Shown here in pieces: positions 6,290 through 39,261 of a stretch of DNA of 64,000 nucleotides. The notes beneath the pieces were generated by a model. It had not been told where the DNA came from. It made no database searches and worked only from the letters and a program-made list of their open reading frames with translations. The position numbers and the translations under genes were made by a program. The stretch lies in sequence record NC_028957.1. One strand, 5' to 3'. Origin of the DNA: Escherichia phage vB_EcoM_VR26. The number at the start of each line of letters is the position of its first letter. Positions within the stretch are counted from its first letter, which is position 1.

Positions 6290-6320
6290 TTTGTTTTCCT
6301 CATCAGTAGTTGATGGGATA

Positions 6321-10932: not shown

Positions 10933-11868
10933 TTATTTTAATGCTTTGATTGCAGCTTGCAATTTATTGCGTTGCTTTTCCATGTTCTTGATGCGATTCA
11001 GAACATCCTGGATACCCTTCTTCTCATCTTCAATCAGACCATTTAAGCGGTTGACTGATTCCTTGATAGCATCCGCATGATAGCTCTCAATAGGCTTCAT
11101 CGCAGGGTTAAAGATTTCAATAGAGCTGGCTGGCTTCATTGACGGGTTAAAGCCGGCTGGCTGGATTTTCCACTGATACGTATTTTTAACGTCCAGGGGT
11201 GAAATAGATGGTGATGTATATTGACCTGCAAATGCTGGGCCATATGATGCAGTAGGGATACGTTCCATTTCTGGTTCCTTTTTCTCTTGATAAGGTGCAT
11301 AAGACAAAAGATATTCCTTTGTCAGTTTAATATCGATAGTTACGGTTTTAAGGAATTTTTCCGTTTGGTGGATATAATTTGTATCTTCATCAAACGTGTA
11401 CGATTCAACAGCATGGCGCATATAAAACAGCGCAATACCCATAACCTCTTTAAAGTTATGACAAAGAGCAACATCGCCCTTGGTGGTTGGTTTGAACTTA
11501 ATCTGTACACCATCATTCTTGATATTGATAATCAAGTTGTCAGAGTTAAAATTATAGTTCTTGATGTTAACCGGAGCTTTGCGAATACGAAATCCGCCGG
11601 CCAGAATTTCCTTGATACTCTTACGAACCGTGGCACCAAACAAAAACGCTGGGCGGCGGCAGTAATCATTCAGAGAGTTAATTCTTACAATACGTTGGCC
11701 ATACCCCTGGGTAGCAGAACCTGATTTGATTTTGCCAAAGTTAACCAAAGAATTCATTGCGATAAGACGAGTCACACGACCGTCATGTGGTTCATAACTA
11801 CTAGCATATTCAGCGCGAGTTTTAATTTTCATATCATAGTCCAAATAATTTTTCATAAAATTTAGCAA
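10933..11868 (-). CDS. hypothetical protein (311 aa) with C-terminal coiled coil
   Basis: ORF track; C-terminus ...NRIKNMEKQRNKLQAAIKALK; start may be an internal Met near 11832. Confidence 0.55.
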   Translation of the reverse strand: MLNFMKNYLDYDMKIKTRAEYASSYEPHDGRVTRLIAMNSLVNFGKIKSGSATQGYGQRIVRINSLNDYCRRPAFLFGATVRKSIKEILAGGFRIRKAPVNIKNYNFNSDNLIINIKNDGVQIKFKPTTKGDVALCHNFKEVMGIALFYMRHAVESYTFDEDTNYIHQTEKFLKTVTIDIKLTKEYLLSYAPYQEKKEPEMERIPTASYGPAFAGQYTSPSISPLDVKNTYQWKIQPAGFNPSMKPASSIEIFNPAMKPIESYHADAIKESVNRLNGLIEDEKKGIQDVLNRIKNMEKQRNKLQAAIKALK

Positions 11869-18686: not shown

Positions 18687-18714
18687 TGTATTCTCCTCAG
18701 TAGTTGATGGGATA

Positions 18715-24421: not shown

Positions 24422-24724
24422 TTAAAAAGAACCAGAGCCTTTAATTGTGTTCTGGCGACCTTTATTTTCTACTTCAGAATGGTCGATTTCGTATGCTTGT
24501 GCTACGCCAAAGGCCTTTTTAACTTTAGCTAAAGAACCTTTAGATGTAACAATATTAAAAGTATTGCCTTTGGTAAAATCAACCAAATCCACTTGCACCC
24601 CTTGTTTACCGAGGCTTGCTACAATAGCATCAACATATTGTTGGTCTAAATTGCCTTGAACCCCAATTTGAAATGCTTTAGGAACTTTAGCAGATTCAGT
24701 AATAAATTCTTGATATGTTTTCAT
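24422..24724 (-). CDS. Internal-protein-like capsid-targeted protein (MKTYQEFITES leader)
   Basis: N-terminus MKTYQEFITE matches the capsid-targeting leader shared by T4 IPI/IPII/IPIII as recalled. Confidence 0.7.
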   Translation of the reverse strand: MKTYQEFITESAKVPKAFQIGVQGNLDQQYVDAIVASLGKQGVQVDLVDFTKGNTFNIVTSKGSLAKVKKAFGVAQAYEIDHSEVENKGRQNTIKGSGSF

Positions 24725-24737
24725 ATTGTTTCTTTAA

Positions 24738-25052
24738 TTAAGCTTTAGGGAAATCGCGCAAAAACGCATCATAAAGTTTATTACCAATGCGACGGAATGC
24801 TTTTGCCGCATGAACGTTATCTGGGTTTGCAATTTTAATCTGCATTACATGACTACCAGCCCATGATTTAGCTTCGTCATAATAACCTTTAATTTCTTTA
24901 ATAGTCTTGCGTTTTCCACCAGGACCATCGACAGTAATTTTCCACGAACCAGTGCTTGTTTCACTTGGTGGGGTTAACTGTTCAATCCAGACATAACCAC
25001 CTTCAACACGTTGTTGAGTAGATTCAGTAATAAATTCTTGATAAGTTTTCAT
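24738..25052 (-). CDS. Internal-protein-like capsid-targeted protein (start at MKTYQEFITES)
   Basis: Track ORF extends to 25091; internal MKTYQEFITEST at 25052 is the likely start. Confidence 0.7.
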   Translation of the reverse strand: MKTYQEFITESTQQRVEGGYVWIEQLTPPSETSTGSWKITVDGPGGKRKTIKEIKGYYDEAKSWAGSHVMQIKIANPDNVHAAKAFRRIGNKLYDAFLRDFPKA

Positions 25053-25100: not shown

Positions 25101-25517
25101 TTAAGCGTACACAGCTTTCCCATAGTATTTGTACCAGGTAGGCTTTTGAGAAATTTTCTCATTCAGTCTGGATTGACTGATTTCAATTGACCAGATTGAT
25201 GGTTGATAATCATTCTTCCATTCATCAGGAATATCATTTAAATCTTGGGTAGAAATATCTTTTATATTAAACCCTCGCTTTAAACATTCAGCAATAAGTT
25301 CTTGATGACGGTTTTTAAGGAACAAAAGCTTATCATAAAAGAAGGTGACATGACCAGTTCCTAAAAGAAAAGATGATGGGATTTTAAAGTCAGACACCTT
25401 TTTACCATTTTGCACATGCTTACGAACAGCACCAAACACGCGAGGAAGCTCACGATATTCAGCCATAAGGTGTTGGTCGGCAAGTTCAGATACCAGGGTT
25501 AAATTAATGCGAGTCAT
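25101..25517 (-). CDS. denV: Endonuclease V (pyrimidine-dimer DNA glycosylase) DenV
   Basis: 138 aa; [35 protein letters not shown]...[11 protein letters not shown] matches T4 DenV from memory. Confidence 0.95.
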
Positions 25518-25543: not shown

Positions 25544-25573
25544 ATTATAACCCTATCGTTTGGAGATGTAAAC
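25544..25573 (-). promoter_or_regulatory. T4-type early promoter upstream of denV
   Basis: GTTTAC -18- TATAAT with inverted repeat atagggt/accctat around the -10; -35 overlaps e stop codon. Confidence 0.5.
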
Positions 25574-26061
25574 TAATAAGCGTCAAAAGTTCCAGTACGG
25601 AAAGTTTCAATAACTCGTTTGGCCCGGTTTGGAGTCTGGACTTTATACCATCTTGAGTCAGCCAGTTCCTTAGCAGCAGCTTCCCATGATTTAGCCTTGA
25701 GCAATCGCAGCCCCTTAGGAAAACCAGCAACACCAGCTACACCCATTTGGAATACCATATTAATGAGTGCACAACGACGAACTTCATCCAGTACATCATA
25801 AACAGGCTTTAAGACAGGATGTTTCAAGATTCCGGCTTTAGCTTTTTCGACCGAACGGTTAAACAATGTTTCGGCTTCGTGCTGGGTTATACGACCATTA
25901 CAGATACGACCCATGAGCTTGTCGAGCTCAGCACGAGCAACATCTTTCGATGGGTTCTTAGTTATCAATTGCCCGATACCAATGGTCCAATAACCTTCGG
26001 TATCTTTATACAAATCCAACTTACAACCTTCATCTATGCGTAACATTTCGAATATATTCAT
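25573..26061 (-). CDS. e: Lysozyme (endolysin) e
   Basis: 162 aa; [12 protein letters not shown]...[15 protein letters not shown]...[12 protein letters not shown] matches T4 lysozyme from memory. Confidence 0.95.
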
Positions 26062-36435: not shown

Positions 36436-36621
36436 TTACTCACCTTTAGATATTTTATCCATAACGAAAGAGATTGAACCAATTAAGAATGCAACTACTA
36501 AAGAGATTGTATTCTCAGAAGTTGAAAGCATATTCAACATAAAGCCAGCAAACATGCTAAAACCAAAAGCAGTAACAGCAACAAGGGCAGTAACATTTCT
36601 AATTAATTCGCAACGTTTCAT
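36436..36621 (-). CDS. hypothetical small membrane protein (61 aa)
   Basis: Two hydrophobic segments. Confidence 0.45.
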   Translation of the reverse strand: MKRCELIRNVTALVAVTAFGFSMFAGFMLNMLSTSENTISLVVAFLIGSISFVMDKISKGE

Positions 36622-36649
36622 TTTATTCTCCTCAGTAGTTGATGGGATA

Positions 36650-36678
36650 ATTGTACACTATCCCATTCAAAAGTACAC
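36650..36678 (-). promoter_or_regulatory. T4-type early promoter
   Basis: GTGTAC -17- TACAAT with inverted repeat tgggata/tatccca. Confidence 0.45.
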
Positions 36679-36912
36679 TTATTTTTTACGGAAAATTGAT
36701 TTATACTTGTTAGCCCATTTCTCGATAACTTCTGCCGGACCCTGGATAACAAAATAGTCACCAAACTCTTCACCGCCGAGCTGACCGTAATTATCTAAGG
36801 CGTCGCGGAGAGTTCCATAAGGCATTTCGCCCATTTTATCTTTCTTGCCAGTGTAAATGAATTGCACTTTAACATCAGCAGTTTCATTAATAAATTCTTG
36901 ATAAGTTTTCAT
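36679..36912 (-). CDS. Internal-protein-like capsid-targeted protein (MKTYQEFINET leader)
   Basis: IP-type N-terminal leader. Confidence 0.7.
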   Translation of the reverse strand: MKTYQEFINETADVKVQFIYTGKKDKMGEMPYGTLRDALDNYGQLGGEEFGDYFVIQGPAEVIEKWANKYKSIFRKK

Positions 36913-36937
36913 GCTGTCTCCAGTAGTTGATGGGATA

Positions 36938-36967
36938 ATTATACTGCAGTTATTCCATCATGTATAC
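36938..36967 (-). promoter_or_regulatory. T4-type early promoter upstream of IP-like gene
   Basis: GTATAC -18- TATAAT. Confidence 0.45.
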
Positions 36968-37210
36968 TTATTTTAAGTCTTCTAGGCGTTTTTTCATCTT
37001 GGTGCCATTCTTAGCAATTTCGCCTGCATCAGAACAAAGAGCAAGGAGAGCTTTAACTTTACCCTGGTCGCCTTTAAAAGATGATGCATCTACAGAATCA
37101 GCAAGTTCTTTGATGCGAGCAAACAGGCGCTCTGCTTCAGCAAGGGCTTGACCAAGTTTAACTTCCATACCATGGGAAGATTCTGTCATAAATGTTTGAT
37201 AAGTTTTCAT
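36968..37210 (-). CDS. Internal-protein-like capsid-targeted protein (MKTYQTFMTES leader)
   Basis: IP-type N-terminal leader. Confidence 0.7.
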   Translation of the reverse strand: MKTYQTFMTESSHGMEVKLGQALAEAERLFARIKELADSVDASSFKGDQGKVKALLALCSDAGEIAKNGTKMKKRLEDLK

Positions 37211-37218
37211 TTGAAATC

Positions 37219-37491
37219 CTATTTTAGATAAATTGCATATTTTTTATACCCAGCTGTCTCATGGCGGAGACCCTTGTCATTGGCAAAACGCTCAATGTTA
37301 TTAATTTGGTTCTGGTCAAGTTCAGAGATGTCAAACGCGAAAAAGTTGCGTTTGTTACCAATTGTTATATGGTCAGTTAAGTCAATGCTGTACAGGTGAT
37401 TGATATTGTCAATCATAGCTTTGACTGCTTTACTAATTTTTACTTCTTCATTCAGTTGGGACTCGTTGAAAAGTTCATTAAAAGTTTTCAT
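37219..37491 (-). CDS. Internal-protein-like protein (variant leader MKTFNELFNES)
   Basis: Leader variant of MKTYQEF. Confidence 0.6.
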   Translation of the reverse strand: MKTFNELFNESQLNEEVKISKAVKAMIDNINHLYSIDLTDHITIGNKRNFFAFDISELDQNQINNIERFANDKGLRHETAGYKKYAIYLK

Positions 37492-37499
37492 AAGAAACC

Positions 37500-37832
37500 T
37501 TATTTATACAGTTTAGCTAGTTCTTTACGTCCGCGAGCAGACATAATGAATTGTTCATCACCAATTTTGAAATAAGCCATACCGCCGTCAACAGCGATGC
37601 CAATTTCTTTAGTACCTTCTTTGCCTTTCCACTTGCCACCAGATTTCAGGACAGCTTCAACTGCAGCTTTGGAATATTTGGACGTTTGAAAACGTTCATT
37701 ACCAATCTGAAAGAAAACACCATCTGCGTTTTTGGATAAACCAAATTTCAGAGAGCCTTCACTATCATCAATTGATTTGGTCTCATTGATGGCGGATTCG
37801 GCTAAAAACTCATTATAAGTCTTGATGTTCAT
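37500..37832 (-). CDS. Internal-protein-like protein (start at MNIKTYNEFLAES)
   Basis: Leader variant; track ORF extends to 37865. Confidence 0.6.
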   Translation of the reverse strand: MNIKTYNEFLAESAINETKSIDDSEGSLKFGLSKNADGVFFQIGNERFQTSKYSKAAVEAVLKSGGKWKGKEGTKEIGIAVDGGMAYFKIGDEQFIMSARGRKELAKLYK

Positions 37833-37863: not shown

Positions 37864-37892
37864 ATAATACTGCACCTACACTCGTTTGTACA

Positions 37893-37893
<1 letters not shown>
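37864..37893 (-). promoter_or_regulatory. T4-type early promoter upstream of IP-like gene
   Basis: GTGTAC -18- TATTAT with inverted repeat gtgtagg/cctacac. Confidence 0.45.
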
Positions 37894-38583
<690 letters not shown>

Positions 38584-38584
<1 letters not shown>

Positions 38585-39261
38585 TATATTACCTTATTAA
38601 TTTTATCAAAAAGTTCTTCGAGTGTGCCATCGTTTTTAATAACAATGTCACTAGCTAGTGGTGGAAGTCCAGCTTCCGTAATGTGTGTATCAGTAGAATG
38701 ATTTGCTTCATCGCGTTCTACAAAGATTATTGTAGCACCCATCGCCCGAAGCGAATCAAGTTCGTTCTTTTGGCGAACATCAGGGACAACGTAATATTTA
38801 TATCCAGAATAGAGGTTGTCAAGATAATCGCACGCAAAAGTTTTAATCCAAAACATGCTGTCGAACTCTGTACAAACGATGTCAGTTCCAAGGGTCTGCA
38901 TGAAACGTCTAACTGTCCAGGGCTCAACATTATTTAGTGTGTGAAATTCAATGATTTTACGAACCATATCTGGATTCGGAAGGTCAAGATTATATTGTTG
39001 TTTCAACCATTCAAGAGCATCAACCAGAAGAATATGAGCTTCAGTGTTGTTCATTATCAAGGTTTTTTCGCGGTCATAACCTTGTCCATCAAAATTTTCC
39101 AGGGTCAAATTGTGTGGCAGGTCTTGACGAACCCACGCTTTATAAAGCGCTTCTTTAATTGGACCAGCAAGTTGCCACTTTGTTCCGTTTTGACTAATAA
39201 CATAATCAGCAGTCGTATCTTTACCACTGCGTTTTTTACCCACAATCGCAATTAATTTCAT
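38584..39261 (-). CDS. 1: Deoxynucleoside monophosphate kinase gp1
   Basis: 225 aa; P-loop IAIVGKKRSGKDTTADYV; position between 57A and 3. Confidence 0.9.

Follow-up and report, generated by a model that had tools for sequence, protein, structure and literature searches.

What is encoded by the four small open reading frames (ORFs) that lie side by side between 57B and trna.4 in Escherichia phage vB_EcoM_VR26, and how does this locus relate to the single ipI gene of T4? To answer this we analysed a stretch of 64,000 nucleotides from the phage (NC_028957.1), which we call the window, and compared it with related phages. The locus contains four ORFs that start with a shared type of leader and belong to protein families found in other phages; it is polymorphic among relatives, and it has recombination junctions and repeated promoter cassettes. 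The reading that we favour, at a probability of roughly three in four, is that we see here the polymorphic ipI slot of a T4-like phage of the Gaprivervirus type, with four internal protein (IP) genes whose products would be packaged, cleaved, injected and most likely directed against host restriction.

Four leader-bearing genes and their surroundings

A sequence-only reading of the window had described four consecutive small ORFs with MKTYQEF-like leaders. This description is borne out: the genes, here called A to D from low to high coordinates, follow each other on the minus strand at 36679-37832, and the limits are exactly those first noted. Each gene has its own Shine-Dalgarno sequence. The coordinates are collected in Table 1.

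The same reading placed the cluster "upstream of 57B", which is right for the coordinates, as these are lower than those of 57B, but not for transcription. Read along the minus strand, the genes are gene 2, gene 3, gene 1 (dNMP kinase), 57A, 57B, D, C, B, A, trna.4 and trna.3, the same synteny as in T4, and therefore the IP genes are transcriptionally downstream of 57B. The slot between 57B and trna.4 is one of the two T-even IP loci, and the synteny is shared with T4, RB51, VR7, VR25 and P8.

For gene D we use the start codon at 37832, which has a GGAG 5 nt upstream; the MKTY at the corresponding position is where the homologues of D in other phages start. The alternative ATG at 37865, which is used in the VR7 record, is located inside the -10 box of a promoter.

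Table 1. Features of the IP loci and their surroundings in the window. A slash marks the end of the leader.
Feature	Coordinates	Strand	Description
Dispersed cassette	6304-6320, 18698-18714, 29898-29914, 36633-36649, 36921-36937	-	(-10 box)-TATCCCATCAACTACTG-(A)GGAG-ATG; four exact, one with three mismatches
Second IP locus	24422-25052	-	adjoins denV (25101-25517) and e (25573-26061)
trna.4 homologue	36436-36621	-	conserved distal flank of the slot
Same-type cassette before trna.4	36622-36678	-	exact 17-mer at 36633-36649; distal edge of the variable slot
Gene A	36679-36912	-	77 aa; leader MKTYQEFINE/T; Ip6 family, phrog_8111
Promoter cassette before A	36913-36967	-	TATACA-17-TATAAT (36966-36938), 17-mer TATCCCATCAACTACTG (36921-36937), then GGAG
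Gene B	36968-37210	-	80 aa; leader MKTYQTFMTE/S; Ip5-like, phrog_3499; starts 8 nt after the C stop codon
Gene C	37219-37491	-	90 aa; leader MKTFNELFNE/S; Ip9 family, phrog_7673; starts 8 nt after the D stop codon
Gene D	37500-37832	-	110 aa; N-terminus MNIKTYNEFLAES; leader MNIKTYNEFLAE/S; unnamed internal-protein family, phrog_3966
Early-type promoter cassette before D	37864-37892	-	TGTACA-17-TATTAT; conserved in VR7 and P8
57B (Acb1 family)	37893-38348	-	conserved proximal flank; PF23474, E 1.2e-59
Late-promoter motif TATAAATA inside gene 1	38795-38802	-	upstream of 57A-57B and the IP genes; four such motifs on the strand in the window

Some observations concern the neighbouring genes. The protein encoded by 57B is a strong match to Acb1, an anti-CBASS phosphodiesterase, and it is labelled 'RNA ligase' in most relatives. 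With 57B in the Acb1 family, the IP cluster directly adjoins another anti-defence gene. The tRNA region (35359-35514, minus strand) contains only two tRNA genes, Arg-TCT and Met-CAT, while T4 has eight. Immediately after the two tRNA genes there is an ORF of 219 aa (34680-35339, minus strand); the tRNA clusters of T4 and RB51 contain homing endonuclease genes.

Leaders were searched for with a permissive pattern, M(..)?K[TS][YF]..[FLIM]..E, that was run on the ORFs of the window as well as on shuffled windows. Six ORFs in the 64-kb window match it, compared with 0.02 per shuffled window, i.e. 300-fold over chance. In addition to A-D these are an Ip7 homologue at 24422-24724 and an Ip10 homologue at 24738-25052, which together make up the second IP locus. 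The DNA that codes for the leader is itself a direct repeat (families D1/D2).

A failure of the leaders to align with the targeting sequences of the T4 internal proteins had been named as the result that would speak against the internal-protein interpretation. All four do align, without gaps, to the MKTYQEFIAE of IPII/IPIII: over the first ten residues A is identical at 9/10 positions, B at 7/10, C at 5/10 and D at 7/9. The leader of D has two extra residues at the N-terminus (MNI-KTY).

The definition of the gp21 cleavage motif and the mutational data for the capsid-targeting sequence (CTS) are summarised in PMC9026906. The motif, (L/I)-x-E, is present at the expected leader position in A (I-N-E) and D (L-A-E). 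In B (M-T-E) and C (F-N-E) leader position 8 deviates from the expected L/I; in C there is an L-N-E further on, at residues 13-15. All four leaders retain Glu10, and A, B and D also retain the residues at targeting positions 4 and 7, while C has F4, as in T4 IPI, and L7. When applied to T4 IPI, the (L/I)-x-E rule yields the published mature form of 76 residues (IPI*, PMC3012670), which indicates that the rule is valid as used here. After the predicted cleavage, the mature forms would be about 6-11 kDa in size, with computed pI values of 7.8-9.3.

Protein families and polymorphism of the locus

Each of A-D has a full-length match to a PHROG family (E 1e-33 to 1e-56), and the families matched by A, B and C are labelled internal head/virion protein (E 1e-41 to 1e-56). 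Protein A is Ip6 in the annotation of VR7 and VR25 and is thus a member of an already named Ip family, and C is Ip9 in the annotation of VR7 and RB15. B is Ip5-like: it is 50% identical to ip5 of VR25, and phrog_3499 is annotated as Ip5 in ECML-359 and RB51. The exact sequence of B is the 'internal head protein' of VR26. Taken together, the leader alignment, the PHROG families and the names Ip6, Ip5 and Ip9 in relatives support the internal-protein interpretation that had been made from the letters.

For D no name was found: phrog_3966 is of 'unknown function', and the protein is hypothetical or uncharacterised in every record checked. The exact sequence of D is also present in VR20 and UPEC01. 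The homologues of D fall into 11 clusters plus three more distant relatives, and nearly all of them begin with MKTY.EF..E[SA], which indicates that the D family is a leader-bearing family that is simply unnamed.

When the leaders are removed, no significant similarity is detected in pairwise comparisons of the A-D bodies, in agreement with the earlier claim that the bodies are unrelated. Two candidate links between bodies were rejected. A BLAST hit between A and D (E 0.002, in a database of four sequences) and an hhalign value of 94% for the A and D families come from an alignment carried by the shared leader. In the same way, the grouping of D with the Ip10 homologue (24738-25052) in phrog_3966 is leader-driven, as hhalign aligns 12 leader residues only.

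No homology to T4 Ip1, Ip2 or Ip3 was found for A-D. The T4 proteins belong to PHROGs 4363, 7857 and 5341 (Ip1-3), compared with 8111, 3499, 7673 and 3966 for A-D, and the hhalign probability between the D family and T4 IPI is 16%. Further, searches of Pfam and NCBIfam gave no match for the four proteins, and sequence searches of PDB gave no meaningful match for any of them.

Judged by its DNA, the window is a Gaprivervirus of the VR7/VR25/TH40 group. Over its full length it is 97.4% identical to Escherichia virus TH40, a Gaprivervirus whose record is unannotated, and it is 95-98% identical to VR25, VR7, ECML-359, UPEC07 and Yersinia phage P8 in the genes that they have in common. All four proteins are encoded in TH40 too, in unchanged order and with 97-100% amino-acid identity.

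The content of the slot varies between phages. In T4 the space between 57B and trna.4 is taken by a single gene, ipI, as the sequence-only reading had stated, and RB51 also has one (Ip5), while there are four in VR25 and five in each of VR7 and P8. We surveyed 33 related loci, anchored on 57B and trna.4, and found 1-5 leader-bearing genes per slot and at least 15 body families. In the family numbering of this survey the order in the window is G2-G1-G7-G3. With four genes against one in T4, and this range across the 33 loci, the suggestion that the locus is expanded and diversified is upheld by comparative genomics.

The number of families depends on the clustering threshold: single linkage at E 1e-3 chained several families, and E 1e-6 was used instead. 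At E 1e-6 there are still weak links between the Ip6, G5 and G11 families, which have a C-terminal 'GP.e.I..W..KN' motif in common and may, from these sequence similarities, be a real superfamily. We also note that the Ip9 body is unusually conserved across genera for a hyperplastic locus, with a mean column identity of 77% and long invariant stretches; in gene C of the window the leader is more diverged than the body.

The limits of the exchanged segments can be mapped by comparison with close relatives. Against VR25 the homology is continuous except at 36965-37202, which corresponds to the body of B from its first codons to the stop codon, plus the -35 box of the A cassette. Against P8 and ECML-359 it is continuous except at 36693-36865, i.e. 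the body of A from the end of the leader DNA to the last codons of A and the trna.4 cassette. The replaced segments end in leader DNA and promoter cassettes, which indicates that whole gene bodies are exchanged through these two elements. The junctions mapped in these sequences fit the published shuffling of cassettes at the polymorphic ip locus.

The second IP locus gives a related picture. In VR25 this locus has four IP genes, including Ip5 between e and denV. Between e and denV the window has a single promoter cassette only, and the Ip5-like gene is found in the 57B slot instead. This difference in the placement of an Ip5-family gene suggests that IP genes move between the two loci, which appear, from the sequences compared, to draw on a common pool. 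In total the window has six IP genes, VR25 has eight and T4 has three.

The polymorphic ip locus of T-even phages was described by Repoila et al. (1994, EMBO J 13:4181), as cited in PMC12373910 and PMC3012670. According to PMC12373910, which refers to the same study, related phages encode 'at least 10' Ips that are recognised by their signal sequence. The window agrees with this locus in the slot, the leader and three of the four gene families (Ip5, Ip6 and Ip9), which are those named in GenBank relatives. It differs in gene D, which is without an Ip name in the records checked and has a leader that is two residues longer. What we describe is a usual feature of T-even-type phages that has been documented before, and the public TH40 record has the whole arrangement. 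Since the locus, its variability and the shuffling mechanism have already been described, the window adds an example and not a new principle. What is new is limited to the correction of the transcription layout, the mapping of the junctions, and the D family, which is recognised here and given a predicted fold.

Promoter cassettes and transcription

The sequence-only reading had assigned a separate early-promoter cassette to each of the four genes. This had to be revised, as only D and A have a cassette, while C and B have a Shine-Dalgarno sequence only. C and B each start 8 nt past the preceding stop codon, and D-C-B therefore reads as one operon. From this layout, D, C and B are probably transcribed together from the D cassette. 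A generic promoter scan found 16 sites, compared with 12.1 +/- 4.1 in shuffled sequences; this is no enrichment, and the scan has no statistical power here.

The cassette is a genuine repeated element all the same: the 17-mer TATCCCATCAACTACTG has four exact copies on the minus strand of the window, against 0.17 expected. Each copy has a -10 box on one side and the Shine-Dalgarno/ATG of a small gene on the other. In T4, trna.4 is preceded by the same cassette arrangement, including the 17-mer. In the copies at 6304 and 18698 the -35 box is also surrounded by stem-loops rich in G/C.

In each cassette an inverted repeat brackets the -10 box, as GTGTAGG/CCTACAC does in the D cassette, and the stem sequences differ between cassettes. 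This organisation resembles the PeSL cassettes of T4-type phages (PMC2839356, PMC4122927): both have an intergenic sigma-70-like promoter, a stem-loop over the -10 box and then a Shine-Dalgarno sequence and ATG, both are repeated in the genome before small variable genes, and in both recombination junctions are found at the cassettes. However, the stems in the window are short and singly of modest stability, with RNA-folding z-scores of -0.9 to -2.4, compared with -4.1 for T4 ipI, and half of the junctions are in leader-coding DNA. Cassettes of the PeSL type are predicted from the sequence before D, A and trna.4; before C and B there is none.

Late transcription was considered as well. No late-promoter motif TATAAATA was found directly before any IP gene, apart from a candidate at 37508, before C, that was rejected: it coincides with the L-Y-K-stop codons of D, and only about 4 nt of leader would remain, which makes it an unlikely late promoter. 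The motif inside gene 1 is, by its position, a possible source of late read-through transcripts of the IP genes. Gene 1 of T4 also contains a TATAAATA late motif upstream of 57A (about 11006-11013 of the T4 sequence used for comparison, minus strand), at a different distance from the end of the gene.

Proposed function and other explanations

The function proposed here is based on analogy: we infer from T4 Ip1-3 that A-D are packaged, cleaved, injected and active against restriction. Each protein would have a capsid-targeting sequence of about 10-12 residues at its N-terminus, which would dock it onto the scaffolding core of the prohead. The prohead protease gp21 would then remove the leader after (L/I)-x-E, and the small mature proteins, kept in the head along with the DNA, would be delivered into the host together with it. 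In the host, each of them would most likely neutralise one specific defence nuclease. The four genes would be transcribed from two early-type promoter/stem-loop cassettes, of which the first would be used for D-C-B and the second for A, and the gene set would change by recombination through the leader-coding DNA and the repeated cassettes, so that whole bodies are swapped.

Among the GmrSD type IV restriction enzymes, T4 Ip1, Ip2 and Ip3 each block one of their own, without cross-protection, and other proteins of the two Ip loci are expected by the authors to target further variants (PMC12373910). As all three T4 Ips are specific inhibitors of type IV restriction, any additional Ip family is a candidate inhibitor of another defence. 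A-D resemble T4 Ip1 (IPI*), Ip2 and Ip3 in the N-terminal targeting sequence, the small size and the location in an IP locus, and they probably take the same route into the cell. They differ from them in their bodies, which are without sequence homology and fall in other PHROG families; further, the DNA of the lineage is reportedly modified but unglycosylated. The host cytoplasm is reached by internal proteins before any other phage protein, and A-D are ready-made candidates for screens of defence inhibitors. Our literature search found no report of virion proteomics for A-D.

In VR7 the cytosines of the DNA are reported to be modified but unglycosylated (PMC6326788). In agreement with this report, no gene for an alpha- or beta-glucosyltransferase was found at the T4 positions in VR25 (NC_028925, 12000-68000), and in the same region there is no gene 42 between uvsX and imm. 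Given unglycosylated cytosines, the glucosyl-hmC-specific enzymes that are targeted by T4 Ip1 may not be relevant here. A larger repertoire of IPs might make up for the DNA glycosylation that is reportedly lacking in the lineage.

Three other explanations can be weighed against this proposal. The least credible is that the ORFs are chance frames or pseudogenes in an AT-rich spacer, to which we give next to no weight. They are indeed short, at 77-110 aa, and neither Pfam nor NCBIfam gives a match, but homology rejects this explanation, both through the full-length PHROG matches and through conserved full-length homologues in many phages; each ORF has its own Shine-Dalgarno sequence, while antisense ORFs are without support. 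It is far less extreme, although still unlikely, that the proteins are packaged but have a structural or physical role, such as charge neutralisation, organisation of the DNA in the head or aid in ejection. Generic packing of DNA would not need at least 15 unrelated and rapidly exchanged body families, and all three T4 Ips have specific anti-restriction targets (PMC12373910). The charge of the mature forms can be read in both directions: they are neutral to basic, and lysines of internal proteins contact DNA phosphates according to a review of the T4 head (PMC3012670), but A (pI 7.8) and C (pI 8.3) are weakly basic. A structural role would also be in line with the fold predicted for D, which occurs in binders of single-stranded nucleic acid.

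Some of the proteins, especially B and C, could instead no longer be packaged and act as early accessory proteins in the cytoplasm, with a leader kept by descent or recombination. Directly upstream there are only early-type promoters, although the late motif in gene 1 could supply late transcripts. The CTS data (PMC9026906) bring in the leader positions themselves, where M (B) or F (C) replaces L/I at position 8 and C has F and L at positions 4 and 7; however, position 4 is F in T4 IPI too, which is packaged. As Ip9 and Ip5 orthologues in other phages carry the canonical MKTYQEFI.E leader, and Glu10 is kept in all four proteins, we regard a loss of packaging as quite improbable. The preferred reading remains that all four are packaged and injected internal proteins, most likely with anti-restriction activity.

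For D a structural model adds some detail. The model (built from an alignment of 12 sequences, pLDDT 76, pTM 0.63) has, at moderate confidence, two tandem beta4-alpha units. This agrees with a significant internal sequence repeat of about 40 aa (score 49, z 6.6, 0/2000 shuffles). The predicted fold structurally resembles that of Whirly, PUR-alpha and MRP1-MRP2, i.e. the tandem beta4-alpha fold of single-stranded nucleic-acid binders, a likeness at the level of the fold only and one that applies to D only. At the sequence level D has no similarity to Whirly/PUR-like families, and no Pfam, NCBIfam or PDB sequence match. The same tandem beta4-alpha fold is also found in SsgA and Borrelia ErpC, neither of which is known to bind nucleic acid.

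As a predicted minimal domain of the Whirly/PUR type, D may act on the incoming phage DNA or on RNA or DNA of the host or its defences. On the basis of the model, D could then be an unrecognised class of injected internal protein that acts on nucleic acid rather than binding a restriction enzyme, an idea that we consider possible but doubtful. For the Ip9 homologue, C, the model (pLDDT 79) shows a generic alpha/beta sandwich without an informative match. D is conserved in Gaprivervirus and also in phages of Edwardsiella, Salmonella, Serratia and Kosakonia.
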